In this document: one piece after another, positions 1 to 60,029 of the stretch
Numbering within the stretch: the stretch's first letter is position 1
Layout: every line of letters starts with the position of its first letter
DNA from: Psammoneis japonica
Lineage: Eukaryota
Assembly (NCBI GenBank): GCA_008632985.1
Contig: QPGO01000002.1
Location: 620,001 to 684,000, forward strand
Direction of reading: 5' to 3'
DNA length: 64,000 nucleotides
The notes under the pieces: generated by a model
Told to the model about the DNA's origin: nothing
Databases searched by the model: none
The model's input: only the letters and a program-made list of their open reading frames with translations
Position numbers and translations under genes: made by a program

Positions 1-3000
1 CATTCTTCTGCAGGGTGCATTGGTCCCTGGGGAATTGACATGAGAGCCACTTTGTCACACACATGCTGCAGGCATGCATGTGCAAAAATTGACACATTGG
101 GGATTTCCCATGCTTCCCCTGTGCTCTCCACTGTGAGCTGCAAACCTGGGTCAAGAAAAAAATGTGCCAGTCACATGATGGCAATTGACTGCATCATCCC
201 ATTTATGCCACAGCCTTGCACCATCCAACCACCATTTTCACACTTGTCATGGAAGCATGTTGTGGCATTGGAGAGTGGAAAAAAATGGCAGTGAGTTGCT
301 TCACTCATTTGCACATGAGACTGAGCAAGTGCTGTGCAAAACACTTCACTTTTTCTGGTTGGTGCTGACTTGTGCCATTGACTGTTGCTGTCTGATGCCA
401 CCTGCTGCACCTTGCAAGCAACAGTGTGGAAACTCCTTGCTGTGCATCTTTTCATTGTGGTTGTCTTGCACACAATGTTGTTGTCCAAGGATCTTTTGGG
501 TGCACTGTGCACAGCCAACACCTTGGCTCACATGCCAGAACCTCCCCCCCCCATTCAACTGGGTGCCTGGCCCACAGGCCAGGGCTTCATGCAACCAGAA
601 AGCCTCCTGCTGTGTGTCTCACTGTGCACCACTTGCTGGGCTCCCCTGTGGCACATGGGGTCAGCCATCACACTCCCCTCATCACAGCCTTTGATGTCTG
701 CCACTCCAACTGGCCTGGTCTGACCCAGTGTGGCACCCTCTGCTGCCATTGTTGAGACCACCACCAACTCTTTCCGCAATCACAAAGTGGCAGTCACCTG
801 GCTGTGGCTCCAACCACAGTGTTTGCAGCCACACTGGCTGGCATCATGTTGTGAGTGCAGCATGGGTTGTGATGGCATTGGCTGCTGTTGACTGCAAGAG
901 CACAGTGGCTGAGCAGCAGTGTGACAGCACTTGTGCTTGCAAATGATGGACATTGCTTGAGATGGAGCTGTGGTGCTCAAAAGAGAGCACAGCAGTGCAG
1001 CCACTGCAGTGACTGCTGCAGAGCATGTGACAATGACTGCGTGACATGAGGTGCACTGACAACTCCCACAATGCTCAGCTGTGCTGCCTCCTCAAGTCAG
1101 TGCAACTCCTTTTGACTGATGCAGGTTCCTTTTTTGATGCACTCCCTGAGATGATTGGCGGGATGATGTGTGCACTGTGCTTCATCTGCAAAGCCCAGCA
1201 GATGGGGTCCAACTCCAAGAGCTGCTGCTCACGCAAGCTCTGGTGAGTGGGATGATGAAGTGGTGACTTCACTTTCTTGTTTGTCTTTGACTGCTTGTCC
1301 TGGCGTGGTGGGGGGCAGTGCAGGGTCCATCTTCAAGATCTGTGGTGCTCCAAGAGCATCATGTGGAGCAAGGTCACATGCAGTGTCCTTTGGTCAGCAT
1401 TTGCCCAGAACAGTTTATTCTGGTGGGAACTGGATCAAACTTGGGTTGCCATCAGACACTCTCTCTCCCCTTTGAAGAGGCCAGTGACCCCATGACTCAG
1501 GACATTGCTGTGGCAATTGCCAGCCTTGCAGATCCTGCTTGGCTTGCTGTTGGTCAATGGAAGTTTGTGATTGACTCTTGGCTGCTGACTGATCAAGTTG
1601 TGTCCTCACCTGCACCATCACCTGCCACTCCAAACAAGAGTCAAAGTGCAAGAGTTGTGCCCTGACCTGCATCAGGACCTGCCACTCTGGAAGAAGAGTC
1701 AAAGCAAGGTGCTGACCCTCAAGTTGAAGATGGATTTTGGGTGCCTTTTGGCACATGGCAGAGGAGACCAACAAGGATGCTGGCTCACTTTGGTGGCCTG
1801 TCAGACCCTTTTTGCCCTCTCTCCCTGCCAAGAACTGGAAAAGATTGTCAGATGGATGCAAGGAGATCTTGACCATCTCCACCACAAGAGTTCATCCCCA
1901 CACAACTTGTGGCACCAAGAGATTGAGAAGAGCACAGATGTTGCCATGCACATCTTGGATGTCAAATCAACTGCTCCCAACTCTGATGCCAACATGCTCT
2001 TGTGGATTGACGAACATGTCCAAGAAGCCCAAACTTGGGTGGTTGAGCTGGTTGTGGAGGTTCAAGCACAAGTTGAACATCCTGCTGGTGCCCCCCAGTC
2101 TTTAAAAAGGAAAGTGGGCACCCTCAAAAGTCAAGCATCTGTTGGTTGAGGTGTCTCAGGCTCACAGAGTCTTGCTCAAGGCAACAGTCCCTTGGAAATC
2201 AGGGCTTGGCTTCTTCATCTGGCTGAGAACTGAGTGGCAACATTCCATGATGCTGTGTCCTTGTTGTGCTCTGTTGGGCCAGCAACCTCATCTCATGAGA
2301 GTGCCGTTGCAACAGCAAAGGCACAATGAGACGTCAAAATCTCCAGCAAGGGCAGTTGCTTCCTTTGAACTGGTCCACCCTGGATCCTCTTCAACACTTC
2401 CACAGAAGGAGACACAGTGGAAGAACGCCAATGCTTGTCCACTCAGTTGAAGAAATGTTCTGACTGGCGTGCTGAAAATGGCATTTTGGGTGTGTCACAG
2501 TGAATCCCAAGGGGTGCACTTGAAGTTCAAAATTGCACGACAGTTTTGGCACATCAGACAACTGCTGATCCTTGTGTGCTCTGGTTGAGTCAAGGCATGC
2601 TCACAGATTCTCTGAACTTTGTGCAGCACTTTGCATCCTTTGCTGACTGCTGGATCATTGATCTCAAGACCAGAAGTCATTTCAGAGATGCTGAAGGATG
2701 GGAGGTGGCAGCAGCATCAATCAAGAAAATCTTTGAGGACATGCACCATGGTGCTCAATCCCTTGTTCAAGATGTGTCTGACATGGACAAGTTGGTTGTG
2801 GTCTGGAGATTGCTCAAGAGTCATGAAGTCATGCAAAACTGGGGCTTGCATTCATTGTCTTTTGCAACAAGATGCCATTGATCAAAGGATGGCATTTTTT
2901 TTAAGTCATGAGGTTGACAGCTGTGGAGAAAACTGCCAACGCCAATCATGCTGCCCTGGCCAATGTCAAGCCTGGGGTGTTGGCTTTGGAGGCCAAATCC

Positions 3001-5580
3001 AAATGACCCAGTTCTTTTGCTGGTGATGATGTGCCTTTCTCCCCTCTCCTGTCCACTGGGTTGCATTCAGGTGTGCCACTGCCCAGTGCATGTGCCTGTG
3101 GACAAGAGTTGGACATTGCACATTTGACAAAACCTCCAAATGCTTTCAAACATGTGAAGGTCTGTGTCATGTCTAGTTCTTTTTGGACATGGGCAATTGT
3201 GGGTCATCAAGTTGGCAAAACCTCCATGTGTTTTCTTCCGGTCACAGTGGAAGCAAGAACAAACCTGAAGGAGTTTTGTCAGAATGACCACTTCACATGC
3301 ATGCAGGGGTCCATCATTGAGCATTGGCAGTTGGCTGAGTTGTCTTTTTGCTGATCTGGCTTTTTTCAACACATCTCAACTTGCCCACATCCCCACATCC
3401 CTTGCCCTTTGACTGCATCCTTCCCAGCTGCTCTGCAGGTCTTTGTTGCCCTGTCTGAGATTCGCAATGTCTTGCACCCCTTGACCTCCTCCACATGGAG
3501 CCAACACATGCCCCACAGGAGCAGATTGGGGGGCATTGCCATTTGTGCTGTTCTTGTCACTTGCATTGGAGTGGAGGAAACAAGGTTCAGTCAAACAGGG
3601 TGCACTGCCCTCAGCGACCCTCCAACTCTTTTGCAAACCTCACAGTCCCTCTGCTCTTTGAGGCAGCACAACATTCCACCATCAAAGCCACCCAACCATG
3701 CTGGATGAGCTCTGTGGATGCTCCCAATCCTTGGCCTCTTCCAACTTCTGTTGTCCCTGTCCTTGCCCCTTCTTCAGTGTTTTTGAAAGGCAAGAAGGTG
3801 GCACAGTTGTTGACACTGGGAAACAAAGTCAAATTCTGTGCCTTCCTCCTGATTGGAAACACTCAATGGTGGCACACACATTTAGACTTGGGACAATGGA
3901 CATGTGGTGCTGCTTTGGACGCACATTGAATTTCTCATGTGTGCATCTGCTTCATGGATCAGTGTGCAGTCACCTGCCAATGGTGGTTCTCTGTCTTGGT
4001 TGTCTGTTGACAAGAGCCACCTTGATGGGTGTTTGAACAATGACCTCACACATGTTGTCCTCCATGTGAAAGCTGGCCAATCAGTGGGAGATGCATTGTG
4101 TTGTGCATCCCATTTTCTCTGGGTGCAGGAGCCAAGCAGTGCAAGCAATGTCTCAACAGCCACCAAGGCAGACAATGACTGCAGTCAACTCAGGGAAAGC
4201 ATCTCAGATGATGGAGAAGAGATTGCAGCACAAATCAGCAAAACACGCAACCCCAAACCTTGCATCCAATGCAACCTCTTTTGGTGTCTCAGAAAAGACC
4301 AATCTCAGGGAAGTGGGTGATGCAGAGAGAGCACCTGTGCACAGCCTGACAAGTGCTGAGGTGTGGGAAACATGGAAGTCATGGCAAGGACCCCTCAAGG
4401 TGACTGTCACACATCTGATGAAGACCCTGATGACGCCAGCCATGGGCAAAGCAGAAGCATTGATGACTTCCCCTGCCCCCCTGCCACTGTGTCAAGCAAG
4501 CCTCAATCTCTGTGGAAAGGAAACATTGATGATGGTGGCATGCAGCCTTGTGTTCCATCTCACAGCACCTCAAGATCAACAAGGCTTGATCAAGACATTT
4601 TGCTGCCTGTTGGCCATGCAAGAATCTCTGACTGGAATGGGAGCATGGCCTTCATGGAGTGCATCTTCACAGATGATGTGGCCAGATCACCACAAAACAT
4701 CAGGCATGACCAAAAGCAAGTCTGCCGCAGTTCACAAAAAAGCCAGTGGAGTGCAGTCAAGGCTTCCCAGCAACTGCTCTGGAAGAGCAGACAGATGAAA
4801 AGAGCACAGCTGGAGCCACCATGACAGAAATTGACAACAAGAATGGACAAAAGCGAAAGACTGAAACTCTGATGCAAAACAGAAATGAAGAGAGCAAGAA
4901 CAGAGACGACACAAAAAAGCATTGGCGCCGTGGCCTTCGCCAAGCATGCCCATGCTGGTGCCTGTGACAGCAAACCATGATCATGCACTTCTTGGCCTTG
5001 TTGTCACAATCGGGGGGGGGGGGGGGCAAACACACATGTTCTGGCAAAGCACACTTCTCATTCTTGGCATCATCAGCCTGCCATCATGATGCCGCTCAGT
5101 TTGCACGACACCCCGGGGTGACACCAGAGCGCCAAAACATGACCCCCAGGTTTAAAAGGAGCCCCAACAAAGTGGCACTGGTCACCTGCTCGGGGTCCAA
5201 GAGGAAAATCTCGACAAGTCTTTGCACCACATCCAAAACATTGCTGCTTGCTCATGTCGTGATCCAAGGACACTTGGTCTTTCAAAAAAATTCGCTGGCA
5301 GCCAAAGGCAGATCGACAGAAAGCCTTGATCTTCACCACAGCAAAATGGGATTTTCTCTGGATGGCCCTTTAGGGCCTTTTGTATCAAGGCTGTCATGGC
5401 TGCATTGTGCCTGTCTGGAAGTCCTCGTCTCATGGAAAAAGTCCTTGCTTTGACGGAATGCTGAGGATGATCTCTCATGGTGTCGATCAACTTGCTGCCG
5501 GTATCATCTATGGACGACTGTGCTTTTTCTAGCTCAATTTCAAAGCAAGAACAACGCAAACCACACCAAACGCAGCAGCG
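1..5580. mobile_element. TpA/CpG-depleted degenerate repeat domain 1 (transposon relics, runs off the window start)
   Basis: About one TA and no CG seen in the first 600 bp, with strong CA/TG excess. ORFs in all six frames are nearly Tyr-free and rich in Cys/His/Trp/Met. CpG reappears from about 4900 while TA stays rare until about 5580. Confidence 0.75.
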
Positions 5581-8196: not shown

Positions 8197-8790
8197 CATT
8201 CTAGTCATAGATATCGCCGTTGGACGAAAAGAGGACCTAGATCGTCTCTACTGTATAGTTTGGGTTTATTGCCTTTTTCTGGATGTAGAAGTAGAAACCT
8301 ATGTACATGAGCACCACGCCGAAATCGTTGTTGTCGGGCTTTGTCGACGTCCCGCTCTGGAATTCATTGAATCAAAATCGTCCTTCACACAAAGTATCGA
8401 CGTCGTCCGCAAACATACAATCCCAAATCGTCGCAACCAGAAAACCTGAGTACGAAGCACCGCTGAAGCTCCCTTTATTTTTGTTGTGCATTCTAGTCAC
8501 AGATATCGCCGTTGGACGAGAAGAAGAAACCTTAGATCATCTCTACTGCTTTAGTTTGGGTCTTATGGCCTTTTTTTTCTGGATGTAGAAACCTATGCAC
8601 ATGTGGACCACGTCGAAACCGTTGTTGTCGGGCTTTGTCAATGTCCCGCTCTGGAACACATTGAATCAAAGCCGTCATTCACAAAAATTATCGACGTCGT
8701 CCGCAAAACATACAATCTGGAAATCGTCGAAACCAGAAAAAAACTGAGTACGAAGCACCGCTGAAGCTCCATTTATTTCTGTTGTGCATT
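8197..8790. repeat. Tandem duplication of about 292 bp (8197-8488, 8489-8790) covering the stop codon and 3' UTR of the DsbA-like gene
   Basis: Both units begin cattctagtca.agatatcgccgttggacga and end gagtacgaagcaccgctgaagctcc.tttattt.tgttgtg. Confidence 0.9.
8610..8697 (-). promoter_or_regulatory. SECIS-like element in the 3' UTR of the DsbA-like selenoprotein gene
   Basis: Minus strand reads acgtcga..ATGAc-GGCTTTG-attcAAtgtgttccagagcgggacattga-CAAAGCC-cGAc..tcgacgt. It has the ATGA/GA core, a perfect 7-bp helix, AA 12 nt after ATGA and an outer helix. Confidence 0.7.
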
Positions 8791-12595: not shown

Positions 12596-14749
12596 TTAGG
12601 CCGCTGCCTCGGCTTCGTCGACCGCTTGCTTCGCAGCCTCGGCTGCCTCTGCGGCGGCTTTAGCAGCCGTGGCTGCCTCTTCCGCAGCCGTCTCCGCCGC
12701 TTTGGCTTCTTCTTGGGCAGCCTTCGACGCTTCTGACTTTGTGAACACGTCACGCTTCGCCTCTAAAGATGCTTCTCTGGCATTGGCAGCTTCTTGCTTC
12801 AGATCCTTGAAGTCCACGAGCTGTGGTTTACCATGGACATAGACTTTTCCCATGGCTGGTATTCCGCCTTTCATCAAATCAATCGGCTCGTCCGTCTTGG
12901 CCGCTAAAAACGCATTCAACGACCTTTGGAGCTGACCAAAGTAATCCTTCTTTGTCGTTCCTTCGTCGCTGTCATAGAACGCAATACGAATAGGCATGTC
13001 AAAGTCTCCGTTGCACAGGTCTGAGATATCAATTTCGGCCGTAGACCATACTGGATTGAGATCGTTACTGATAATTGGGGAAGTATAGACAGTTTCACTA
13101 AAGGAAAGAGAAATGCCATTCATCAGTTTCGAGGATGAATACAGTCCAAAGACGAAAGAATGACACACACTGATAACTGATAACTCACCCCTTCGCACCA
13201 AACACTTCAAAGTATGGGTCTGAGAAGTTGGCAAAGCCGTCCTTGTCCTCGAAATTCGAACCACGCAGCGCGAGGTGAAACTTTCCGCTGCACGATTTCA
13301 CCTTGGCATCAGCATCCGCCTGCTTTGCTTTTTCTTCGAGTTCAGTCACCAATTTTTCTGCATCCGTCACCGCTTTGGCTGCCTTTTCTGCTTCGGATTT
13401 TTTGGTATTGGCAGCATTCTTGGTATCATCAGCCTTGGTTTGCGCAGCCGCAGCAGCTAGGCTTTTCTTTTCAGCCGTTTGTTTCAATGCGCGAAGACGG
13501 TTTGCCGCGGCCCAGCGTTCCACTTCAACCGTGGCAACAGCCTCCATTGCCTCCTTTGCTTCTTCAGAAACATCATCCTGGGGTACAAGAGAGGCTCCCA
13601 AGACATGAACATCTCCAGTTTTCTTGCCTCCTTCCTCCTGTTTCATTTCAATGGGTTCACGAGCAGAGAGGAATCCATTGATGCTTAGTTTAAAACTTCC
13701 CATGAAATCTCGCTTTCCATCGAGGCTATCCCTGTCATAAACCATAACTTGAATTGGAGCATCCATATCACCACCGGTCAGGGCTTGGATACTGACGCCA
13801 GCAGCCGGCCATACGGGATTCAGGTTGTTGTCGACCACTTTTGAGCGGTACACAGTTCGGCTGAGAGAACGGAGAGAACTGACTGAGCCGACGATTCCAG
13901 ATGATGAGCGGTACCAAATATTGAGAAACTTACCCATCGACTCCCTTCAGCTCATAATACGGATCCGATTTGTTCATGAAGCCCTCCATATTTTTGAACT
14001 TTTTTCCACGAAGCTGATGCTGTAGCATGCCATTTTCGGTATGTTCTTCAATGTGAACAGCGACACTGAGCAGAAGGACAGAATGAGCGATCGGTCGAGA
14101 GGGCGTATCTAAAACAAAAGCACACCAAAAAATCCAAGCCGGCGAAACAACAGCACTCACGCTCCACCATTTTCCATGGACTTCGCCATAGCCTTTGTTT
14201 CTTGAGCCATTACATCTCCTACACCGAAATCTACAGAGCCAAGTGCATCATCACTGTCGCTCTTTAAAACTTGAACTGAGACCGACTGACTCGGCTCAGC
14301 TTCGAAAACGATAACCTATCAATTAGAAAGCCAAGCAAGTACAAAACAAAGCCGTGAGAAAGTGTTGAAACGAGAAAAACAGAACCGTGAGAAGGGCTTC
14401 TCATATCCTTTCAGCGTTCGGGAAGACACATCAAGATATTATGATCCGAAGTTTACGCTTCTTACCTTGGACCAGCAAGGATCGTCGGTATTCTTTTCCC
14501 TGTTTTGAAATGAGAGATACCAATGCGAGAGTCATAGGTGAGATGTACCACCAATATCCACCGCAGTCACTAAGCCGCAACACCCGCACGCCGAAACTCA
14601 TCATGCACCGTGCAAAGAGAAATCAAGTGGCATGTCGATCGAACTCACACGCCTGTTTTGGCAACATCGACGCCATCTAGTTTGACAATAGCGTATGTAT
14701 CAGCTTGAACTGGTAAGTCTCTGCAACTTAGAGAGAGTTGAACCTTCAT
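12596..14749 (-). CDS. Multi-exon protein with three copine-type C2 domains and Ala/Glu/Lys-rich coiled coils
   Basis: MKVQLSLSCRDL..EKNTDDPCW; KSDPYYEL..VYRSKVVDNNLNPVW..VYDRD; FSDPYFEV..SPIISNDLNPVW..FYDSD. Exons are joined by GT-AG introns. No vWA domain is visible. Confidence 0.8.
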
Positions 14750-14929
14750 CTTGGATCACCGCAGCAGAAGCAAACAGCACCAACACCGCAGTACCGTTTT
14801 GCGAATGCAAGGTGCGTGCAAAGCGATACAGTAGGTGCGAAGGTGAAAGCATCACCGCAAAGAAGAACTCGCCTAGGGGGGGGGGCAGATCTTTCCTTCG
14901 TACCGAAAAAATGTCTGGTAGGTCGCGGA

Positions 14930-15900
14930 TTGCCGCACAGAGAACAGACGATGATGCAGTCGAAGTCGCGCGCATCGCGTCCGTCAGCCAGATCTGCGCC
15001 TGTCAGAGTCAGATCAGACGATGCACCCCAGTGTGTGTGGGCTTGAGATGGATGGCGGTGGTCGAGAGTTGACTAACTGTCATGCACAAAGCACAGCACG
15101 CTCCCTCTGTTTTTTTTTCTTTTTTCTTTTGGACAGTTTGGTCTCCTTTTTTTTGACGTGCTCTCTGGCCAGCTGCTCTCTGGTTGTTCCTTCTTTTTCT
15201 CTTCCCCTGAGCTGGCGCTGCTCCTCTCACCAAGAACAAAAGAGCTCACAGAGAGATCCAGGGTGGGTGCCAACAACCCGGGCAAGCAGGGCTTTCCAGC
15301 TGCTTGTGAAATTTTGCACAACAAACAAAAGAAAAGAAGCACTTGTGCACGTGCCTCACATTGTGGGGTCATTTGGAGCAAACTGCATTTTGCCCAATGT
15401 GACATCAGTGAAGCAGAAAAGCAGAAACAGCAGCACATTGTTGTGGGTCATTTCCAATGGCCTGGCCTTTGAGAGCAGGGCAATGCTGCTGGCACGGAGC
15501 AAGACACCACAGAAAATCTTGGGGATTTGCCTCTTCTCTCTGCTGCTGCTCATGTGTGCCGGCGCACTTGCTGGCAGAAAGAGATCAGTGCCCAAACTCG
15601 GGGGAGAGAGGTGAGTTTGTGTGGTTGTCAGTCTGTCGATGATTCAGGAAGGCAGGGCCACCAGGTGGTGTCGCATCGCACCGGCATCTGTCGTCGCATC
15701 GCCTGTGCAAGCAAAAAAACGGTCTGTCCTCTTCCAACCGGTCTGTCCTCTTGCAAGAGCGAACTGTGTAAAACCACTCTAAGAAGGGCTTCCCGTTGTT
15801 GCACATGCAAACCGTGTCTGCTGGCATCGGTCAGAAGGTCAACAGAGATCTTTGCGAAAACAGCGGGCTAAAAGAGTGTTGCATCATGGCACAATTGGAG
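14930..15900. mobile_element. TpA-depleted domain 2 (repeat relic, overlaps the left end of a MITE)
   Basis: Almost no TA. CpG is retained at the edges and lost around 15150-15500. ORFs here are largely Tyr-free. Confidence 0.65.
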
Positions 15901-16444
15901 GCCAAACGCGGCACATCGCCATTTTCTAAGAAAAATCTACCGTTTGAGAATTTACACAGATTTTCTATCATTAATTATCCTCATTGATGGATGTTTTTTA
16001 GATGTCCATTTCCAATTCGTGACAAATGCCTGCATACGAAATGCGAGTAATAAGGCAAAACAACAACGAATGAGAGCTTATGGACCCGCATTATTCGATA
16101 CGAGTGTGTATTATGGACTTGCCATTCTGCCCTTGCGAGAGATAATGGCTAAGCGATTGACGAAGGATGCAAAAAAAAACTGTGTAAATTTCTCGGTATG
16201 TTGCCACGTAGAAATCTACTGACGACCGGTCTGTCCTCTTGGAACGAAAAAAGGCCCTTCTTGCGATAGTAACAATGGTGTTCAGAACCGTGAACCTGGC
16301 AAATACAGGCATAGGAGCACGTCAATTGACAATGTTAGAAGACGTAAGAAGCATTGCACAGTGAAAAGCGAATCGATTTTGGAAACAAAATCGACTTTTA
16401 CACAGATGCCAAAAGGCAGAGGACAGACCGGTTTTTTACTTGTA
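15706..16444. mobile_element. Non-autonomous TIR element (MITE-like, about 740 bp, probable TA target site)
   Basis: Left end tgcaagcaaaaaaacggtctgtcctct; reverse complement of right end tacaagtaaaaaaccggtctgtcctct. Extra ccggtctgtcctctt copies lie near 15739 and 16226. Confidence 0.7.
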
Positions 16445-16883
16445 CTGTGGTCGACGCAGAGACTTAAGGTTGTATTATGTCTATTGCCTGTACTGTACAT
16501 TTTAAATGGAGAGATAGACGTCCACGAGTCAGACCCGACTAAAGGTGGTCGTGAAAATGTCTGTTGCATGGTACAGACAACCCGTATCCTGCACTGGTGG
16601 TGGCAGATCTATTGCCCAATGTCTAATCGTATTTTGTTATGTGTTCTTTAGAAACGCTGCTCTCTTAACGCCACGTCGGCGCTCAATCGGCAGGACTTAC
16701 TTTCAGTACTGCTCTGTTTGTCGAAGAGTGGACAAATACTTAAAGTCCACCCCTCTCGGAGCTAACGTCTGGACATTTGTCGATACCGGATTCATTCGTG
16801 ATGCTATCCCGCCCAACGGACGGTCGCGACCCCGACCTCTCATTATTTATTGCCGCCAACACCGACAAACCGTTTCGTACTGA

Positions 16884-18146
16884 ATGCGTATGCCACCATC
16901 CATGAGCATGAAGAAAGAGAAAGAACAGGACCCTACAAAGTCCGTCAGTGACTCGTGGCTATCGAGTCCTGAAGCCCAAAAGCCTTCCACAAAAGCAACT
17001 GCTACGGCCACGGGCGGGGAAGTCATCGATTCGTCCGCTTCAGAAGCTGCCGTCGGCACAATAAATAACCCGGACAATGTTACGACGGCGTGCAAAGATG
17101 TCAATGAACAATTTGAGATTAATGAACAAGTTCGTCCGAAGAAGGAAGGTATCAGTGAATCTCGAAGAGCTTCCAACCGAAGGAGTGCCAAGAGGAGTCG
17201 CGAAAGGCAGAAACAGGAAATGGAAATGCTCCGAAAGAAAGTTGCAAATCTTTCCAAGTCGAACGAGATACTGCAGGAGCAAACCAGGTTTCTTACGCAA
17301 CGCAATCAAGAGGCTATGCTCACAATTCAGCACTTGCAGAATGAATTGAGGTTCGCAAGAGGCAATCATGCAGCTGGAGGGGCAACGCCAGCAATGGCTT
17401 CGATTCATCAGCAGAGCCATCCACATGCACCGAATATTCCACAGATGCCGGGTGGTATGAGGCAAGGTACCGACGAAGGATATCATCGCTTTCCCGGAGT
17501 AGACCTGCGAGGTAGCAATGCCACCACGCATGAGCAATGGAGGGCAGAAAATATGATTGATCCAGGCGTGTTGCCGCACCAAAACCTCCATCCCGTCCAG
17601 GGGCACATCAACCCTCATTTAAGTGAAGCTAGCCTTGGACAACAAATGCAGGATCCATCGGGTGTGCAAGTAAACCCTTCTTCTCAGATGATGACTAGCT
17701 TTCATCAGAATACTCGTCAACGAATGCCAGACTCTGCGTCGGGGATGAATCAGCAAGCAGTAGCGGTCAATCCGGATAGATCTATGAGTCATCACGTGCC
17801 AAGTTTCGGAAGTTATGGTCATTCCATGGGAAGCTTAGATCAAGTGCAACAACAGGGTGCCACGGGTGTTATCGAATCCTCGACCGCTATGCTACCACGT
17901 CCGAGAATGAATCCAAGAGAGCAAGAGCAAGCTAGCTATTTGCAGCAGCAAGGAGGATGGGATCGTGCTCCAGTTCTCGATTCAAACGCGACAACACCAA
18001 TACGACTTCGAGATGACGCATCAGCCACACCAGTTACGCATCTCTACGAAAAGTTCAACGAGAGCGACGGCAGCATTAACTGGGAAGGGATTTTTGGGGA
18101 GACCAAAAGATCGGATGGGGGAAACGATCGTTCTAGAGAAGCATAA
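16884..18146 (+). CDS. bZIP transcription factor
   Basis: Basic region RRASNRRSAKRSRERQK, then a Leu heptad zipper and a Gln/Met-rich tail. Confidence 0.88.
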   Translation: MRMPPSMSMKKEKEQDPTKSVSDSWLSSPEAQKPSTKATATATGGEVIDSSASEAAVGTINNPDNVTTACKDVNEQFEINEQVRPKKEGISESRRASNRRSAKRSRERQKQEMEMLRKKVANLSKSNEILQEQTRFLTQRNQEAMLTIQHLQNELRFARGNHAAGGATPAMASIHQQSHPHAPNIPQMPGGMRQGTDEGYHRFPGVDLRGSNATTHEQWRAENMIDPGVLPHQNLHPVQGHINPHLSEASLGQQMQDPSGVQVNPSSQMMTSFHQNTRQRMPDSASGMNQQAVAVNPDRSMSHHVPSFGSYGHSMGSLDQVQQQGATGVIESSTAMLPRPRMNPREQEQASYLQQQGGWDRAPVLDSNATTPIRLRDDASATPVTHLYEKFNESDGSINWEGIFGETKRSDGGNDRSREA

Positions 18147-23934: not shown

Positions 23935-24034
23935 GCCTTTTTTTGTAATTATGTGGACTACGCGTCGGAATGGCTTTTGAGTTCGATCCTACGCCCGAAG
24001 TAAATTTAGCATCATTATACACCGCAAAGCACTC

Positions 24035-24415
24035 TCTAGCTAGAGGCAAGGTGCGGCGTCTGCAGCCTCTAGAGTGTTCTTGTCTCGTCGCTTGTTTCTA
24101 TCTCGAGCTTAATTGGAATTGGGTAGGCCAACACTTGTTAGCTCTCTCTAGTCTAGTAGAGAGAGAGCTACTCTCTACTCTACCGGTAGCTCTATTCCAC
24201 TCTCTAGAGAGTAGCTACTCTCTACTCTAGAGTAGCTGCTAGCTAGCTGCTATTACTCTAGCTAGTAGAGAGGGCTACATGGCTCGATCGCTCTACTCTC
24301 TACTACTCTAGCTCTATTAGTAATAGCTACTCTACTACTCTACTAGCTAGCTACCGGTAGCCCTACTACTCTACTCTAGTAGTAGCTAGCTCTAGTAGAG
24401 AGTACCGGTAGAGAG
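24035..24415. repeat. Low-complexity CTA/TAG tract (ctactct, agagtag, tagcta, taccggta words)
   Basis: Seen directly. Related tracts occur at about 12340-12450, 30580-30610 and 53030-53190. Confidence 0.8.
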
Positions 24416-24592
24416 GCACGGCGGGGGATAGCAGACGTCAACTATAACCCGGATATATATATTACGTCGTCAATCACGCGAGGTGAACTTGCGGGCGGCG
24501 AGGCGCGTGAAGACTGCATGCATCCCGGCTTCGGGTCGCGAGTTTGATGGCGTTTTTCTCGCAGGCATCGGATCTTTTGCCTCCCTTCGAGA

Positions 24593-26104: not shown

Positions 26105-26239
26105 CTCTGTAGAGTAAGAGGTAACAGGCCAAAAATTGTAGAGAACTTTTTTGAGATAGTAACTTTGAGGCTTGAAGCAAAACTACTGCGTCCCTAGTTT
26201 CGAAGCGCTAGAGAAGTTTCTTCAGGAAGTATGACTTGT

Positions 26240-28200
26240 TTCTTGTGATGGTGTTGTTCGCTTTTGCTGTTTGTTGTTGCCGTTCTCCAGTTCATGGTTC
26301 ATGTCATCGTCGATCGTCGAAAGGCGTGTGAGAGTGACGCACAAACACACAGGGAGTTGCATGAAATGTCAAAATTTTCATTTTTCCCTGCAAAAACGCA
26401 CAGAATGTCAGAGAGACCTGCCTGCACGTGAGTGCCGCCACAGTCTGCACGATGCTGCGAAAGTTTGTGCACTTGCCACCAAAACGCTGCTCGCACTTTT
26501 TGCCAGGGGACATGCCACAGACACACAATGTTGCATTTGGCTGCAGGACAAATCCTGTGTTTTTGGGGCTCTGTTTGATTTGACAAAATGTCGAAATTCC
26601 ATGGAAGGTTTCTCAACAATTGCCTTTTTTCCCAACCAGTGCTGAGACAAAATGCCCCCAGAAATGCAGGTGGTTGTGTCTTCACCAGACCCCGCCAAAA
26701 TTTCTCGTTGAGAAGACAACCCACTGGATGGAATGAGAATGTTTAAATGATGTTGCACAGTGCGTGAAAAATGACAACCTGCACTCACTCAATTGGGTTG
26801 GCATGGTGACATCAAGCACTGAAATGAACGACAAAACGGTGCGACAATCGATGATGACGACACCTTCTATCGGTGCCTGCCTGTGCGCTCATTTTCCACT
26901 GCACTCAAATTTGTACATCCACACATACATCATAAGCAGTTGCCATGAGCACATCACGTTGTCGGTCACGGCGTTTCTGCACGCATGATGATGCGCATGG
27001 CACCGCACGACTGCAAGAGACGCCGTTGAGTTCCCTTCTCGATCCCGAACTCCGATTTGAACCAGTCACGACTGTCTCAACCTCATCGCTTCGTGCGATG
27101 GTACAATTTCAAATTCAAACCCGCCAAATAGCTCCAACCGCCAAAACCAAAAAAGGCCTCTTGGGGGGGACTGGGGCTGGAGACTATTTTGGATTGTTGT
27201 CGTTCAAGATTCCCTTGCATGCCGTTCCAAAAGCGTTCCAAAAGCGTTCCAAAAGCGTTCCGAGAACGTTCTCATGTGCACTAATTCACGCGGAAATCAA
27301 ACTTTGGAGCCGGTCAATTCGCCAATGAGACATGTGATGCATTGCAATCAGTGCACTGTTGTTAGAACCATTTGAGTGTGGCACAACAGTGTAAAAGTTT
27401 AACAGATTATATGGATTTATTGCAAAAAGGTGCACCCGTCAAAACAGGTTTCTATTTTCTCTAAGAAAAAGAACGGCTGGCAGAAGTCTCAACAATTTTG
27501 AGTTGCAGTGGCTGTGAGTTGAACTGCGAGGGTGTGTTGTAACTGCCAGTGTTGTTTGACAACAAACCACATCTACAACAACCGCCAACAGCTCCAACAC
27601 GGAAATGCCATTCGACGAAATGGGCATTTCGTCATTCCCGTGTTTCCACCGTTCCGGGACCGCACCAAAAGCGTTCCGAAACCGCACCAAAAGCGTTCCC
27701 GAAGGGAATCTCTCTAAAAGGCCTAACATCAAAACATTGTTTTTAGACGTTGGAAACGAATGAGAACCCTGCCCGATGATGCATGGAACCATCAATCCAC
27801 CTGCGGCAACAAAAACACTGCTGTGTGGCAACAGCGCGGCATCAATCATTTTAGCACAGTGCAAAATGTCAAATGCGCAACACACGACTGCACTGCTCAC
27901 CATGCAAATGCGCCTGCCCAGAGCCACAGTAGATTGTCTTGCAAGGACAGTCATTCAGAGGCAGACAAGATCGGAATGGATTTGGAACCAATGGGTTCGC
28001 GTCACACTTGAGCACTTTGCAGGACACACAGCAGTGTGCGAGTTGTGGGGCCTTCTTCAAGATGAAGGCAACCTTTCTCATGGGTTCCTGCCCACTCACT
28101 TGTTGTGTGCCCTTGTTTTCTGAATCTGCATTGTTCTGAAACCATTTTGCCGGGAATCTGTGGTGGAGCACACGAAGACACGACAAGAAAATGGTTTTGT
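26240..28200. mobile_element. TpA-depleted domain 3 with short internal repeats (repeat/TE relic)
   Basis: TA is rare and CpG partly retained. An 11-bp unit ccaaaagcgtt is repeated at 27223-27261 and again at 27650-27700. Confidence 0.6.
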
Positions 28201-28715
28201 GTCGGAGTGGAGTTAATTGTAAATCTGGACTTGTTGCGTACCATCATTCCAATCTCTTTTTGAAAATCAACGTACTGGCATTAGCTTCACCATCTTATCA
28301 TCTTAGATTGACTGGTAACACAGGTTTATGGATGATAATGGCATGCACGGTGACGGTGGACGGCACTGACTTTCGCTTCGCATCAACGAACCATCGCCGC
28401 GTTCGCCGTTCGACCCCATCTTCTATCTGGTGTCTGGTGTTCGCATAGCCCAAAATGCAACGTTTTAGGGGATGTGTAAAATGAATTATCGTCACGAAAA
28501 AACACGAAAAACCACGAAAAACAGGGAAAAACGAAAATTTCGACATTTCATGCAACTCCCAGACAAAATTTGGCGCATGCGTCATCCCACCTTTTATTTT
28601 CGCGCGGGAAAAGATGACGTGAGATTTCCCACCGACATCACGACCAAAAGCAACAGCATCTTTCTCGTTGATGCGGCTGGATAGGCAAAAGGAGGCAGAC
28701 AATTGGCAATTGACA

Positions 28716-31762: not shown

Positions 31763-32992
31763 TTACCGGTCAGACTCTTGCCGCCGCACCACTTTGCTCT
31801 CATTTAGGCTATTCATTGCTTTCGAAATCTCTGCAGTTTTTTTATTTTCCGCACTGTGAACATCGTCCTTATTCTCGTCAATATCAATTCTCAGAGCGTT
31901 GGTGTGTCTCAATTCATTGTACAGGTAATAGGCAAAGCCACTCGTGGAGTGGATGACAGCGTCGCACCGCCTGACCAAACGAAAAATGGAGAGAATAACA
32001 ATCACTTCCAGTTTTGGATTATTGGATGGCGTTTGGTTTTCAAAACCACCTTGTGAACCTCGATGTCGCGGTCGATCCAAGTAGACCCACTTGAATTCCG
32101 GGAATTGTGATGTCGCTTCATCAATGGCATTCTGATCATCCGTCAAGAGGAAAATGGAGCGGTTCGATAAGGAATGGTTGTGCTCCTGGGCTGCGTCGAC
32201 GTATTCTTGAATGGCATGGTATTTACGCGCTTGACCCCTTGGATGCAACACCACGTCGCTTCTGCGAACATGAATGGCTGTACAAGGCGAAGTCAAGTTC
32301 ACCGTTTTGGAGTACTCGTAGATGGCTCGTCTCAACCAGGTCTGAGGACGGGACGCATATTCGTAAGCCCACGCTGCTCGCAAGTTAACAATATGAGCGA
32401 CTTCCTTGGAAGCTAGTCCGTGAATAATCCTTTCTTTTTTAGGTTCTTTTGGAACAACGCATGCGGAGATTGGAAGGAAAAAGCAACTCATGTCTTTTTT
32501 CGGACACACCGGATGGTCCCCCTTTTTTGTTGCTGCGTAGTGCCAATGTCTCTTTTTGTATATATCCACGGGCTCATTGCTCTCGAGAGCATACAGTAGA
32601 CCATCAACGACGTTGAAGTAATCCGCTCCCCATCCTGACGACCACAACTGCTTGAAAGTCATGTTTTGGCAGTTTCCCTCAAACTGGACCTTGTACAAGT
32701 CACGAAAAAATGTAGCTTTTTCTGTATTATCCATGCGAGAAAAACAATAATGCGTATCGTTTTCATAAGAAGCGGACCAGTCAGCATTATGAGTCCACCA
32801 ACAGTCTAAATTGACGTCCCATTCGACACAGAACGACGAGTTGTTGTGGGCGACATTACAGACTGCGTGTTGAGGATCGAGGTATGGAGCTGTATACTCT
32901 GATACTGTAATTCTTATGCCGTTGAGTTGAACCAGAAACAGAATTCCAGCTAGAATCGATGCGGTACGAATAGCGCATCGTATCGAAACCAT
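31763..32992 (-). CDS. Alpha-1,6-fucosyltransferase-like (GT23-type) membrane protein, paralogue 1
   Basis: N-terminal anchor, SSGWGAD, AIHVRRSD, IFLLTDD, HSTSGF. Confidence 0.75.
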   Translation of the reverse strand: MVSIRCAIRTASILAGILFLVQLNGIRITVSEYTAPYLDPQHAVCNVAHNNSSFCVEWDVNLDCWWTHNADWSASYENDTHYCFSRMDNTEKATFFRDLYKVQFEGNCQNMTFKQLWSSGWGADYFNVVDGLLYALESNEPVDIYKKRHWHYAATKKGDHPVCPKKDMSCFFLPISACVVPKEPKKERIIHGLASKEVAHIVNLRAAWAYEYASRPQTWLRRAIYEYSKTVNLTSPCTAIHVRRSDVVLHPRGQARKYHAIQEYVDAAQEHNHSLSNRSIFLLTDDQNAIDEATSQFPEFKWVYLDRPRHRGSQGGFENQTPSNNPKLEVIVILSIFRLVRRCDAVIHSTSGFAYYLYNELRHTNALRIDIDENKDDVHSAENKKTAEISKAMNSLNESKVVRRQESDR

Positions 32993-33440
32993 TGTCGAGG
33001 GCCCACTGGAGATTTGCCTATCGCTCTCCCATTTTCAATCTCCTCATCTCTCCCGCACCTCGCATTTTATTACTTCGTGTAGGCCCTAGGAACCTATCAC
33101 GATGCTGTGTGCCTACAACGACGGATTTCATCGATTTTGGGGTTGAACTTGTGAAAACGGAGATAAACGACAGAAACCCAAAATTGAAAATCACCAAAAC
33201 GCCCGGCCGAGACCTCTGAGCGAGACACCAGAACAAAAAAAAGATACGGTAGCAGATAGTCGTACGGTAGCTGGTAGTGGAAGTGAAGCTACTTGCTAAT
33301 CTAGAGACAGGCCTGACAATGGGTGTTGTCGGATCAACCGTCAAGACATGTATTGAATGCTATAGGTTAAGAATAGCTATCAGGGACAGGAGAAAGGACA
33401 AGATGGATATGCTTGACATTTGAAGACGAACCATGCGCTG

Positions 33441-34640
33441 TTAATTCGGCGTGGTGGCATTTATGGAATTGTTGAAACTGCGCACGCCTTCTTTCCCGTT
33501 GTCAATATTGATTTGCATAGAGTCGCTCATATAGTGCCAGATGTAGCTGGCAAAGTTACTGGTAGAGTGAATGAGTGTATCACATTTTTGAACCAGACGA
33601 AAAATGGATAGCATGACGATCACCTCCAGTTTCGGATCCTTGGATGGGGTCTGGTTTTCCCATCCTCCTTCAGTGCCACGATGGCGTGGTCTATCCAAAT
33701 AGACCCACTTATAATCAGGATATCGAGAATGTGCTTCTTCGATTGCATTTTGATCGTCGGTCAGCAGAAAAATGCTTCGATCATTTCTGTGTAAAGAACG
33801 ATTTCGTTCCGTAGCTGCCTCAATGTACTCTTGAATCTCGTGGTACTTTCGTGAAAACTTGCCGTGCAGGACCACATCAGCTCGACGGACATGAATGGCC
33901 GCACACGGTGAGGGTAGATTTACGGAATTGGTGGAGTATTCATAAACGGCGCGTCTCAACCAGGTTTGTGGGCGGGTAGCATACTCGTATACCCAGCCCG
34001 CCATGGGCTGCTGAATACGCGGGGAATGATTTTTCGCAAGAAGATCATTCACCACTTTCTCTCTAGGAATATCATCTGGTACCTCACAAGATGATATATT
34101 CAGAAAGTAACATGACATATCCTTTCTCGGGCACACCGGGTTGCTACCATCCTGTTTGTTTGCCGCATAATGCCAGTGCTGTATGTCATGCAATTCTACA
34201 GGTTGCTTCGTTTCGAAGGCAAAGAGAAGTCCATCGTTCACATTTAAAAAGTCAGCTCCCCACCCCGACGACCACATCTGTTTGATTACAAGTGTAGAAC
34301 AGTTCCCGTTGTGTTGAATGTCGTGCAGTTCCCGCATGAAACTTGCTTTGGCTTCGTCTTCCATGGGCGATAAGCAATAGTGCGTGTCGTTCTCCAACGA
34401 TACAAACCAGTCAGGATTGCTGGTCCACCAGCCATCAATGTTCTTTTCCCACTCTACACAGAAAGCCGTTGTTTGATTTCCTTTTGGCATTTGATTGATG
34501 ATGGCGGAAAATTCACGGTCGCCACTGGATGCAAAGACTGCAAAGATGTGACGCGCTCTCGTGTTGATAAGAGTCGAAAGACTGATCACAACGACAACAG
34601 CAGCTATCAAGATTGCTGTCTTTGGTGATGATAATGGCAT
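33441..34640 (-). CDS. Alpha-1,6-fucosyltransferase-like protein, paralogue 2
   Basis: Same motifs (AIHVRRAD, IFLLTDD, HSTSNF). The likely start MPLSSPK precedes a TM helix. Confidence 0.75.
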   Translation of the reverse strand: MPLSSPKTAILIAAVVVVISLSTLINTRARHIFAVFASSGDREFSAIINQMPKGNQTTAFCVEWEKNIDGWWTSNPDWFVSLENDTHYCLSPMEDEAKASFMRELHDIQHNGNCSTLVIKQMWSSGWGADFLNVNDGLLFAFETKQPVELHDIQHWHYAANKQDGSNPVCPRKDMSCYFLNISSCEVPDDIPREKVVNDLLAKNHSPRIQQPMAGWVYEYATRPQTWLRRAVYEYSTNSVNLPSPCAAIHVRRADVVLHGKFSRKYHEIQEYIEAATERNRSLHRNDRSIFLLTDDQNAIEEAHSRYPDYKWVYLDRPRHRGTEGGWENQTPSKDPKLEVIVMLSIFRLVQKCDTLIHSTSNFASYIWHYMSDSMQINIDNGKEGVRSFNNSINATTPN

Positions 34641-35147
34641 GATGATGAATGGAAGGTACAGTTGGTATGCGGTGGATGCGGGTTTTGCCTGTTGCGCCTG
34701 TTGCGTGTGTTTGCTTGAGCGCCCCCCGATGATGAGGGGTGCGGTGCTGATGCCTGCCGTGATGGCGGCTCTAGACTCTATGTAGAGTGAAGCAACGATA
34801 ACAACGCGTTTATGTGAAACCACATGTTTGAAGGCTTTCATAATTGGCCACATCTATGTCTTCGAATGTTTTGATGTATTGTAAGAAGAAACGACAACGG
34901 CAATTGTTTGGATCGCGGAATATAATTTAGCTACAGAACTTATAAATAAAAAATTCAAGGCGAATCACGTTTGGAAGATCATTGTCACATTCAGAGATGA
35001 TGAAATGAATAAATGACCCGTGGGTCAATCGCTCACAAAATCGTAACACCGCGAAACAATGATGACTGACTCCGTTGTTGTGAATCGTACCATTGCACCT
35101 CAAAGAACGTAATATGGTTTTTCAAAAGCCATTTGAGAACAATAAAT

Positions 35148-36344
35148 ATGAAAACTTCCTTGCGCCACACTCTGATCATGTTAATCACGTTAAATGTCAT
35201 CCCTGTGGTGAGATTGATAAGATTGATGCGGCTTCATACCAATACCGAGTTCAAGGAGGAAACGGAAATGATGGAACCTGCTGAGAGAGTCACAACCAAG
35301 CCGGTTGTTAATGACACGCCTTCAATATGTGCATCATGGGACCAAAACATGGATAAGTGGTGGGGCAGCCACCCTGATTGGAGTCTGACGTTTGAAAATG
35401 ACACGCACTACTGTTTTGCTCCGATGGAAGACAAGGCCAAGGCAAAGTTCTTTCGAAGACTGCATGACGTCCAGCAAAATGGAAACTGCTCTAGACTGAT
35501 TGTAAAAGAAATGTGGTCCTCGGGATGGGGTGCAGATTTTGGTAACGTAAACGATGCCCTTCTTTTTGCGCTCGAGTCGAAATTTCCAGTCCAGATGCAT
35601 ACATTGAACCAATGGCATTATGCAGCAAACAAAAAGGATGGCAGCCGACCCGTATGCCCTAGAAAAGATCTGTCATGCTATTTCCTAAACATTTCTGCTT
35701 GCGAGGTACCAGCTGATATCCATATTACCAGAGAAAATTTTGTCAACGGAATGATTGCGAGGAAGCGCTCTTTCTATTTCAGGAGACGTAAAGCAAGATG
35801 GGCATACGAATATGCTACCCGGCAGCAAACATGGCTTCGACGTGCTGTTTACGAGTACTCTGCCAAAATCAAACTGTCGTCACCATGTGCTGCGATGCAT
35901 GTGCGTAGAAGCGATGTTGCGTTACACGGCAATTGGTCAAGGAAGTATCACGAGATTCAAGAATACGTTGATGCTGCCGCGCAACACAACCTTTCTTTAC
36001 ACAATCGATCCATCTTTCTTCTGACAGACGATCAAAATGCCGTCGATGAAGCAATATCGCAATTTCCGTACTACAAGTGGGTTTATCTTGATAGACCGCG
36101 TCACCGTGGTGCCGAGGGAGGGTGGGAAAACCAAATCCCTTCCAACGATCCGAAACAGGAGGTTCTAGCGATTCTTGCGACGTTTCGTCTTGTCCAACAA
36201 TGCGATGCGCTCATCCACTCCACCAGTAGCTTTTCTCATTTTCTCTGGCACTACATGAAAGATCCTGTGCGCATCAACCTTGATCTAGGAAAAGAAGACG
36301 AGGTTGTGTACAACTCAAAGTATTCCAAAAAGCGGCCAACCTAA
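35148..36344 (+). CDS. Alpha-1,6-fucosyltransferase-like protein, paralogue 3
   Basis: Same motifs (AMHVRRSD, IFLLTDD, HSTSSF). Confidence 0.75.
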   Translation: MKTSLRHTLIMLITLNVIPVVRLIRLMRLHTNTEFKEETEMMEPAERVTTKPVVNDTPSICASWDQNMDKWWGSHPDWSLTFENDTHYCFAPMEDKAKAKFFRRLHDVQQNGNCSRLIVKEMWSSGWGADFGNVNDALLFALESKFPVQMHTLNQWHYAANKKDGSRPVCPRKDLSCYFLNISACEVPADIHITRENFVNGMIARKRSFYFRRRKARWAYEYATRQQTWLRRAVYEYSAKIKLSSPCAAMHVRRSDVALHGNWSRKYHEIQEYVDAAAQHNLSLHNRSIFLLTDDQNAVDEAISQFPYYKWVYLDRPRHRGAEGGWENQIPSNDPKQEVLAILATFRLVQQCDALIHSTSSFSHFLWHYMKDPVRINLDLGKEDEVVYNSKYSKKRPT

Positions 36345-42145: not shown

Positions 42146-42599
42146 CCACATCTCCTTTACGATCATGCTTGAATGGTTTCCGTTGTGTAGAATGTTATGC
42201 AGTTCCCTGGGGGAAAAGAAATTTGCGTTGGTCTCGTTTTTCCATGGGCTCGGGCTCCGACGACACAATTCCAGTCAGGATAGCTCGTCCACCATGCATC
42301 CATGTGTTTTTGTTCCACTCAAAACAGGCAATTGATTTATTGATGATGACAGACAGTTCAGAGCAGTCATTGGATTCATGCAGCAGGTGTGCCGCCGCAT
42401 GCTGTCATGTTGTCATGTTGATGAGGGTCGAAAGACTGATGATTCGTTCGGGCAACAATGGCAGTTGTCAGTGCACTGCAGTTTCTGGTGGCCAGAACGG
42501 CGTGACGGTGAGTTGCTCATTGGACAATGCTTGTGAAGACACGTTTGGCAAGAGCAACAGGTGACACAAGCTGCTGTGACATCCAGAGAGTGGAGGGAT

Positions 42600-43240
42600 G
42601 GAAGTGTTGTCCCCCCAACAGCAGCAGACTTGAGCTTCCAAACTCCAGAGTGAAACGACCCTGTGATGGCACCAACCAACCTGACAACTGCAAACTGAGG
42701 GCACTGGTGGTGTCTGGTGGACCCCAGGCAACACTTTGAGAACTGTGGTTGAGCATTGCAAGGTCTGTCTTGTGGTGTTGTGGCCCCATGTCACCTCATC
42801 TCCAACTGCACAGTGGGAGCAGACTTCTTGACTTTCCCAACTCCAGAGTGCAGGGACCCCATGTGGAACCAACCAACCTGACAGCAGCAAGAACAAGGGC
42901 ATTGGTGGTCTCTGGTGAGCTCTTGACACTTTGGCAACTGTGGTTGGATCATGCAAGGTTGATGTTGTGGTGTTGTGGCCCCATGTCACCTTGTCCCCAA
43001 CAGGAGAAGACCAAAAGAATGCCTTGCAGTGAAAGGCTCCCATGATGGCACCAACCAACCTGACAGCTGCAAGCTGAAGGTGTTGGTGGTCTTTGGTGGG
43101 CCCCAGGTGCAACTTCAAGAGCTGTTGTTGTGCATTGCAAGGTTGATCTTGGGGCATTGTGGGCCCATGATGTTGTCTTGTCCCTCGTCTCCAACAGCAG
43201 CAGACTTGAGCTTCCAATCTTGAGAGTCAAAGGATCTTGT
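42600..43240. repeat. Tandem array of about 190-200 bp units (about 3 copies)
   Basis: Recurring gcagactt..ccaaactccagagtg..catgatggcaccaaccaacctgaca..ccccagg..cattgcaagg..gccccatgtcacc. Confidence 0.85.
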
Positions 43241-43344
43241 GACAGCGCCAGTCAACAACTGTGTGCTCCGAAGATGCCAAGACAAGAAAATGTGACAGCA
43301 CTTTTCTCAAGAGCTTGAGACCAGTTGTTTGGCAGTTGCAGCGA

Positions 43345-47926: not shown

Positions 47927-48390
47927 GGCCTCTTGGCCCCAATGCAATGACGGACATTGAGCTCCAACATTTGCGCAACACCTTGCCAGATGTGGCTGTC
48001 ATTCAGCAGATCAAAGAGCATCTCTGGCTCTTGGAAACATCATTGCAACCAATGCACATGGCTCTTGTTCATCCTGATGTAGACCGAGAGACAGAAGATG
48101 TGATTTTGGATGTTTTGGGTGCAGAAGTCTTTCAACAGACAGTTGGTGGGCAAGCGCTTGTGGGGAGTTGTTCAAAATTTTCAAACCAAGGCGGCATGGT
48201 GCATCCTCAAACAACTGTGGAAGACATTGAAAAGCTTGGTTCACTGTTGCAGGCACCACTTGCAGCAGGAACTGTAAATCGTGGGTCAGATGTGTTGGGT
48301 GGAGGCATGGTGGTCAATGATTGGTCTGCTTTTGTGGGGTTGGACACTGCCAGAACAGAAATTTCTGTCATTGAGAGCATCTTCAAGCTT
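47927..48390 (+). pseudogene. EIF6: 5'-truncated, hypermutated eIF6 gene fragment
   Basis: [64 protein letters not shown]. There are compensating frameshifts in the SALGN segment. Confidence 0.9.
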
Positions 48391-60020: not shown

Positions 60021-60029
60021 TCCTGCAGA

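Follow-up and report, generated by a model that had tools for sequence, protein, structure and literature searches.

At positions 15706-16444 of a 64,000-nucleotide stretch of DNA from Psammoneis japonica (contig QPGO01000002.1, positions 620,001 to 684,000; the whole stretch is hereafter called the window) there lies a small element with inverted ends, of which the right one has kept its two TA steps and the left one reads TG and CA in the same places. The left end adjoins a single-copy island from which TA has been almost completely lost, and the edge of this TA-depleted zone falls inside the element. The arrangement is probably the outcome of TpA-to-TpG/CpA hypermutation after insertion, which would have extended from the neighbouring island over the first 8 to about 170 bp of the element, its target being set by position and not by repeat identity. 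The observation itself is real and beyond chance. An earlier interpretation of this DNA (the sequence-only reading) was largely right; the edge has been moved to about 15770, and the spreading and immobilisation which it proposed are what the pattern may further imply.

Two ends and many copies of one element

The left end (15706-15732) reads TGCAAGCAAAAAAACGGTCTGTCCTCT and the right end (16418-16444), as reverse complement, reads TACAAGTAAAAAACCGGTCTGTCCTCT. In these terminal inverted repeats 24 of 27 nucleotides are identical, the mismatches being at positions 2, 7 and 14; by repeat search the inverted arms are 31 nt long at 87%. Exactly two TA steps are found in the right end, at 16443 and 16437, and their left-end counterparts are TG at 15706-7 (site 1) and CA at 15712-3 (site 2). 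The third mismatch is C versus A at 15719, and the CpG of the left end (15720-1) is retained. The chance that three random mismatches hit both TAs is 0.033, and that both are also transitions 0.004-0.008. When the two ends were compared past about 30 nt no homology was found, so they offer no further polarised sites.

The number of copies was approached with Logan contigs from three runs of one public sample, aligned to 14800-17000 at a likeness of at least 80%, where contig depth is not equal to copy number. In run X1, 248 contigs were aligned. Their summed depth is 60 up to 15687, 4326 in the bin 15688-15761, between 960 and 5340 across the element, 735 in the bin 16428-16501 and 58.8 beyond, and other copies cease to match in their flanks at 15708 and at 16442, 16443 and 16445. 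The element is thus a real many-copy family bounded by depth steps at both ends. A unique contig of 14,208 nt runs from the left into the element as far as 15749. Given contigs built from 31-letter words, this end implies that words through 15719 are unique to the copy under study and that the junction between its tandem subterminal units is common to other copies; one contig of another copy has a single subterminal unit (joint 16442 to 15736). In the same manner, the start of the unique right-flank contig at 16416 implies at least one other copy with a TA/TA right end. The sequence-only reading had described a single MITE (miniature inverted-repeat transposable element) at 15706-16444 with a mutated left and an intact right terminal repeat, both TA sites converted, the CpG kept and the left repeat lying inside a depleted domain; the similarity of the ends, the depth step, the many copies and a TA-free run of 695 bp (15075-15768) which contains the left end bear out this description.

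The window and the contigs do not agree everywhere. At 14876-14886, in a G run, 4 letters are left out and 6 letters differ; at 15280, inside the island, CG stands against CA; and at 15899 the window has A and all 20 contigs have G. These disagreements may be assembly errors or allelic differences.

The element is flanked on both sides by CTG (15703-5 and 16445-7), for which a chance match is expected once in 64. It is also possible to parse it as 15708-16442 flanked by a TA duplication, and if the duplication is TA rather than CTG, site 1 belongs to the duplication and not to the inverted end; under either parse, site 1 is a TA position now reading TG. Just outside CAAG...CTTG, other copies have TA, CA or TG as their two letters, and in one case GA. 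The target duplications of PIF/Harbinger (Tourist) elements are 3 bp long and read TWA, those of Tc1/mariner (Stowaway) elements are TA, and those of hAT elements are 8 bp long. Here the duplication has the Tourist length of 3 bp but reads CTG and not TWA, and for a Stowaway element at 15708-16442 the right side gives TA and the left side TG. A hAT element was rejected as the 8-bp flanks, ATCGCCTG and CTGTGGTC, are unlike. As in Tourist and Stowaway MITEs, the sequence is short and non-coding and exists in many copies, and inverted ends, subterminal repeats and a short target duplication are present. It differs from them in the duplication, which is CTG and not the usual TWA, or TA on the other parse.

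As a transposon the element itself is ordinary. It is small (739 bp) and non-coding, with no transposase partner within the window. No Pfam family was found above cut-off in the four open frames overlapping it (15872-16219 and 16223-16648 among them), weak matches below the cut-off being limited to the frame 15585-15827 (E 0.0045-0.084), and Rfam and tRNA scans of 14500-17000 gave no match. The motif CCGGTCTGTCCTCT occurs four times at no more than one mismatch, with none expected, and two of these occurrences lie in the tandem 19-nt units of the left end. A metagenome scan with the element end pattern and a viral contig scan each gave 0 loci. Three metagenome loci match the subterminal 19-mer and were discarded, none being homologous to the element; two of them are GC-rich contigs which share only a 19-20-mer. 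The third, a metagenome contig (L002, 1501-1649), carries a 65-bp tandem repeat of three units, each with a subterminal-motif string of 19-24 nt and otherwise dissimilar, and this match is probably due to chance. In the accessible text of the literature on diatom MITE families, nothing usable for these ends was found among the matches listed.

The position of the TA edge within the element can be bounded from both sides. By maximum likelihood, the change point in TA lies at 15767/15769, with an interval of 15712-15927 at two log-likelihood units when composition alone is used. TA accounts for 3 of 52 pyrimidine-purine steps in 15706-15926 and for 30 of 125 in 15927-16444 (p = 0.005), and CpG stands at a normal level in the same left 221 bp (11 of 52 steps). 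Two sister contigs, one of 324 nt (depth 252.6) matching 15877-16200 and one of 415 nt matching 15895-16309, show two differences each, none at a TA; those of the longer contig are at 15899 and 15907. As sister contigs are nearly identical from 15877 onwards, in-place conversion of TA ended left of that position. Conversion can be demonstrated at 15707 and 15712, which means that 2 of 2 TAs were converted in the first 8 bp versus 0 of 24 in 15877-16309 (Fisher p = 0.003). The edge therefore lies within the element between 15713 and 15876, most likely near 15770; the sequence-only reading had rightly put it inside the element and set it too far right, at about 15900. The limited reach of the process, also proposed there, is supported by the same contrast. 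That the process spreads in cis is one of two readings which fit this pattern, the other being that the whole zone 14931-15767 is the target and that CpG decay is simply slower. The right edge of the CG-depleted core has a change-point interval of 15544-15679 and so falls before the element. The features discussed are listed in Table 1.

Table 1. Coordinates of the element, its parts and the depleted segments around it (positions in the window)
Feature	Position	Strand	Remarks
MITE-like non-autonomous element with inverted ends, many copies, 739 bp	15706..16444	+	Based on ends, repeats, depth step and loose ends
Left inverted end	15706..15732	+	Site 1 is TG (15706-7), site 2 is CA (15712-3); A at 15719 is private
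Right inverted end	16418..16444	-	Both TA steps intact (16437, 16443)
Left target-site duplication, CTG	15703..15705		On the other parse, a TA duplication that now reads TG, at 15706-7
Right target-site duplication, CTG	16445..16447		
Two tandem 19-nt subterminal units with (A/C)CGGTCTGTCCTCT	15718..15756	+	
Subterminal motif, internal copy	16225..16244	+	
TA-depleted zone	14931..15767		1 TA in 162 non-CG pyrimidine-purine steps; island and first 62 bp of the element
CG-depleted core	15070..15557		Nested in the TA-depleted zone, ends before the element
Surviving TAs in the left 221 bp of the element	15769, 15780, 15869		GTAA, CTAA and CTAA; slowly mutated context classes

Direction, context and extent of the TA loss

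Three kinds of comparison bear on the direction of the change. Right-type ends of other copies read ACTTGTA, ACTTGCA (6 contigs) and ACTTGTG (6 contigs); since TA, TG and CA all occur at the terminal site, TA would be the ancestral form, being the only one that gives both others by a single transition. In a second element family, there are 10 substitutions between a copy at 60524-60819, in a TA-depleted and CG-normal margin, and one at 62624-62935, in normal DNA; 8 of them are TA in the normal copy versus CA in the depleted one, on one strand only (8:0, p = 0.008). This second family is a small inverted-repeat element with two copies, and four GTAG sites are still present in the depleted one. 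Finally, a dead eIF6 copy at 47797-48504, inside the depleted zone at 42-50 kb, carries Q, Q, Q and H at positions that are R in seven diatom eIF6 proteins, and C at a position that is Y in all seven. Its first 45 or so residues are missing and its tail has diverged; its closest named relatives in the database are all diatoms (Fragilaria, Seminavis, Fistulifera, Nitzschia, Ditylum and Discostella), at no more than 76% identity.

The loss depends on the flanking bases, according to a rule derived from this window. Among the 48 TAs that survive in depleted zones, none is RTAY, versus 29% in normal DNA (p = 8e-8), and 26 are YTAR, versus 15% (p = 7e-10), TTAA being the commonest survivor. Relative to the density in normal DNA, RTAY sites survive at 0%, half-sites at 4-8% and YTAR sites at 24%. 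As regards the products of half-sites, RCAR+YTGY gains 0.117 in share and RTGR+YCAY 0.043, the latter being about half of the CpG share lost and about what CpG loss alone gives; these gains imply that nearly all half-site TAs changed as expected if the A of 5'-TAY-3' is the altered base. Site 1 (gTAc) belongs to the fastest class, and for site 2 (gTAa) the rule predicts gCAa, which is what is found at 15712-3. The first TA of the fast class in the element is at 15938. In the first 221 bp of the element the half-site products stand at 16 favoured to 4 unfavoured versus 1820:1618 in normal DNA (p = 0.012), which hints that the signature may reach towards 15876, either in place or in the history of the family.

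The patch beside the element is one of several in the window. Of the pyrimidine-purine steps in genic DNA, 16-17% are TA and 23-24% CG; in the large depleted zones TA falls to 0.4-0.8% (0-0.8% in the zones overall) and CG to 2-3%, with CA/TG reaching 96-97%. Two-state segmentation gave six TA-depleted segments (1-5363, 14931-15767, 26232-26861, 27751-28208, 42341-49994 and 59786-61986), about 27% of the window, which sit between genes of normal composition, and five CG-depleted ones (1-5090, 15070-15557, 26494-26825, 42509-49163 and 61279-61863). All five of the latter are nested within TA-depleted segments, with margins of 36-1493 bp, at this locus 139 and 210 bp. The island proper (15075-15705) is single copy: it is covered by one contig, the 14,208-nt one, at depth 60, and by no other contig at 80% likeness or more. 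Its open frames contain no Pfam family above cut-off, and no convincing inverted or direct repeats marking an old element were found in it. The neighbours of the island are a minus-strand C2-domain gene and a plus-strand bZIP gene.

Other parts of the window may be described in brief. Its long open frames include MCM, HSF-type and bZIP factors, pyruvate kinase and FUT8-like transferases. In the depleted zone at 43441-44134 there is a hypermutated partial copy (70% identity) of the adjoining intact ABC-transporter gene at 39919-40545. An inverted pair of 39 nt (95%) at 26352-26390 and 28522-28560 encloses about 2.2 kb, whose ends (26232-26861 and 27751-28208) are TA-depleted and whose middle is only partly so; the interval 26352-28560 may be another element with graded mutation. 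Three neighbouring FUT8-like paralogues at 31763-36344 (67-71% DNA identity) and a BTB-domain paralogue pair at 54704-59758 (74%) have normal TA, which indicates that gene duplication as such is not targeted. A low-complexity block at 24100-24430, just upstream of a glycosyltransferase-like frame, consists of CTAG, GTAG and CTAC words, for example TAGCTACTCTCTACTCTAG; the surrounding 24001-24500 contains 68 TA (observed/expected 2.0) and is depleted in CA/TG, the opposite of the depleted zones. Just downstream of the MCM frame, at 8197-8790, lies a tandem duplication of about 300 bp at 86% identity.

Origin of the altered left end

The course of events that seems most probable may be set out as follows. 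A non-autonomous cut-and-paste element would have inserted at a CTG, with a small silenced island (core 15070-15557) about 150 bp to its left. A regional mutator of the diatom would turn 5'-TpA-3' into TpG or CpA, making A:T to G:C transitions. The zone of the mutator would be wider than the CG-depleted core by tens to hundreds of base pairs on each side, here by about 140-210 bp, and the left end, lying within this margin, would have changed after insertion from gTAc to gTGc and from gTAa to gCAa. The rest of the element would have been out of reach and would for this reason have kept its 30 TAs and remained nearly identical to sister copies. In sister copies lying in TA-normal DNA the left end would be expected to read TACAAGTA. 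As a many-copy repeat is mostly spared and a single-copy island is saturated, position and not homology sets the target, and the positional target is probably a chromatin or methylation domain. It is also plausible that the change in the terminal repeat would immobilise the element, as was suggested earlier.

The simplest chemistry would be deamination of adenine in 5'-T-A-Y-3' on either strand; instead, oxidised thymine might mispair with G. A resemblance to TAY is seen in U-A-C, the sequence on which TadA-type enzymes act in the anticodon loop of tRNA. An ADAT2-like deaminase has been proposed for Bigelowiella in the accessible text of a preprint (bioRxiv 10.64898/2026.01.13.699255).

Several points weigh against this explanation. 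All runs come from one sample, possibly the source of the assembly, and so do not count as independent evidence. What stood at 15707 and 15712 ancestrally is read from the right end and from fragments of other copies, and some of these share CA at site 2 (the joint contig) and TG at site 1. The expectation in the sequence-only reading that other copies would not share the left-end letters was accordingly borne out only in part, and the shared letters are read here as recurrent hits. In-place change beyond 15713 is not demonstrated: in 15762-15926 there is no site with a majority of TA versus CA/TG in this copy (among the sites listed, 40 of 244). At 16051, 16267, 16270 and 16313, where this copy has TA, CA/TG makes up 66-80% of the aligned depth, from which it follows that most of the family has itself been converted. 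For this reason sites of TA versus CA/TG would be missing from those listed, and in-place conversions in 15762-15876 could be hidden; the reading that no in-place conversion of TA occurred in 15762-15926 was dropped on the same ground. Furthermore, three private changes outside TpA fall within the same left 109 bp: C to A at 15719, deduced from the contig end at 15749; G at 15761, a CpA site, where A has 98% of the aligned depth; and G at 15814, where C has 95%. Something besides the TpA process has thus raised divergence there. Finally, neither a Pfam family nor a repeat partner was found for the island that would account for its being targeted.

Among the other explanations, an inherited end deserves the most attention, unlikely as it is. 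A donor copy that already carried TG and CA, through ordinary divergence or through hits elsewhere, would simply have landed beside a TA-free patch. The presence in other copies of CA at site 2, and of TG or CA at site 1, agrees with this, as does the fact that, with about 27% of the window TA-depleted, landing by such a patch would not be rare; moreover, of the 5 private changes deduced for the left 109 bp only 3 are A:T to G:C. On the other hand, the left flank is free of TA for 630 bp, while to the right of the element the first TA follows 20 bp after the junction, at 16465. Such an asymmetry is natural if the element pushed the right flank out of reach and is a coincidence if the element landed later, when the pre-insertion TA edge would have to fall within about 20 bp of the insertion point. 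To this coincidence is added the change of 2 of 2 TA sites (p about 0.004-0.03); site 2 changed in the direction given by the context rule, and the private changes cluster at the end touching the patch. As for an allele free of the insertion, no contig joining 15705 to 16445 was found among those listed, which is not evidence of absence.

It is a good deal less probable that the copy is composite, i.e. that the right two thirds of an old mutated copy were replaced by gene conversion or recombination with a young one, or that two copies were joined. The mixed types of the several private changes in the left 109 bp, the near identity of 15877-16309 to sister contigs and the existence elsewhere of contigs joining element ends (joint 16442 to 15736) would all fit such an origin. 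Nevertheless, the CTG/CTG duplication fits a single insertion, even if it may match by chance, no junction is visible in the sequence, and the normal CpG of the left 221 bp argues against an old resident of a methylated patch.

Still more doubtful is the reversed order, in which the element would be the trigger, with silencing that sets out from its left end and proceeds leftward into single-copy DNA. The element is indeed the sole recognisable repeat nearby, and the island is single copy with no transposon signal; but the CG-depleted core occupies the centre of the zone, with nearly symmetrical TA margins, and not against the element, most of which is unaltered, and all five CG cores in the window are nested likewise. 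An artefact of sequencing or assembly, such as base-calling errors at modified bases, can be dismissed almost entirely: near-total conversion, sharp edges and the disagreements at 15899 and 15280 might suggest it, but public-run contigs reproduce 14800-15749 with 7 differing letters and a 4-letter deletion, of which 6 letters and the deletion are at the G run and only one letter lies outside it, the dead eIF6 copy has also lost its first 45 or so residues and diverged in its tail, and the signature matches a process measured by Illumina in another alga, according to the accessible text of its description.

Significance and comparison with known systems

Transposon ends are identical at landing, and the pair of ends serves as a built-in before-and-after control. 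Here it points to a direction from TA to TG/CA, to in-place change after insertion, and to a zone that ends within about 170 bp inside one element, which agrees poorly with homology as the trigger, as in repeat-induced point mutation (RIP), and points to a domain-guided mutator. It can be proposed, tentatively and with somewhat less confidence than doubt, that diatoms possess a mutator which reads 5'-TAY-3' and rewrites A to G, takes its aim from a chromatin or methylation mark and not from homology, acts a few hundred base pairs past the core and is able to blunt transposon ends lying within this margin, and that they would be a second independent lineage for a genome-defence chemistry of eukaryotes known from one preprint. 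If this is true, the locus offers a time-stamped view, at base resolution, of how such a domain ends. The locus also permits the limit of the mutated zone to be compared with methylation or histone marks, and the surviving TAs at 15769, 15780 and 15869 are places to watch for new mutations. An enzyme-driven A-to-G editor of DNA with a preference for TAY would be of interest to genome-defence biology and to base-editing technology. What is new here is the edge within an element adjoining a single-copy island; the kind of process is known from one preprint.

Decay of CpG results from deamination of 5-methylcytosine in methylated repeats. In common with the TpA loss, a self-complementary pyrimidine-purine step is lost to TG/CA in marked domains, and such decay is present in the cores here. 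It leaves the TpA loss unexplained, however, as the TpA zones are wider than the CpG-poor cores and the left end lost TA and kept CpG. RIP turns C to T at CpA, creating TpA, and is triggered by duplicated sequence. It was rejected for this locus, where TpA is lost and not made, the single-copy island is converted and the many-copy element is unconverted over 15877-16444. RIP is nevertheless the functional analogue of the process here, although the direction is opposite, TpA being destroyed here and created by RIP. Both are dinucleotide-specific transition hypermutation of mobile DNA with a spill into adjacent non-repeated sequence. RIP of ascomycete fungi is described, in the accessible text on Cladosporium fulvum, as leaking into neighbouring single-copy DNA (PMC9453070).

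The closest known system is that of Bigelowiella natans, for which TpA-only A:T to G:C hypermutation of chosen regions was measured in mutation-accumulation lines (Mettrop et al., bioRxiv 10.64898/2026.01.13.699255, 2026 preprint). Among the matches listed, the accessible literature on TpA loss contained this preprint only and none for diatoms, and the available main text of the preprint has nothing on diatoms, on flanking-base preference beyond TpA or on the sharpness of zone ends. According to that text, the targets are integrated giant-virus and virophage DNA, in viral inserts of 25-186 kb, and transposon-type domains are enriched among TpA-poor coding sequences (bioRxiv 10.64898/2026.01.13.699255). 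As far as this source goes, the two systems share changes at TpA to TpG/CpA, chosen regions beside normal DNA and a long-term footprint of TpA depletion with CpA+TpG enrichment. With regard to restriction to TpA, the end pair of this element gives 2 of 3 mismatches and the second element pair 8 of 10 substitutions, the exceptions being 15719, 15761 and 15814. With regard to foreign or viral targets, the other zones of the window hold dead eIF6 and ABC-transporter copies and a small element, and the island has no recognisable origin. Bigelowiella is a chlorarachniophyte whose process, by the same accessible text, was measured in mutation-accumulation lines, whereas the present host is a diatom, as the eIF6 matches indicate, and its process is read from sequence; the viral region there has a Rho of 0.45, in contrast to a near-total loss here (1 TA in 162 steps); co-located CpG loss is not reported there, whereas a CpG-depleted core is nested in the zone here; and the targets here include a single-copy island of 0.8 kb and the end of a small element.

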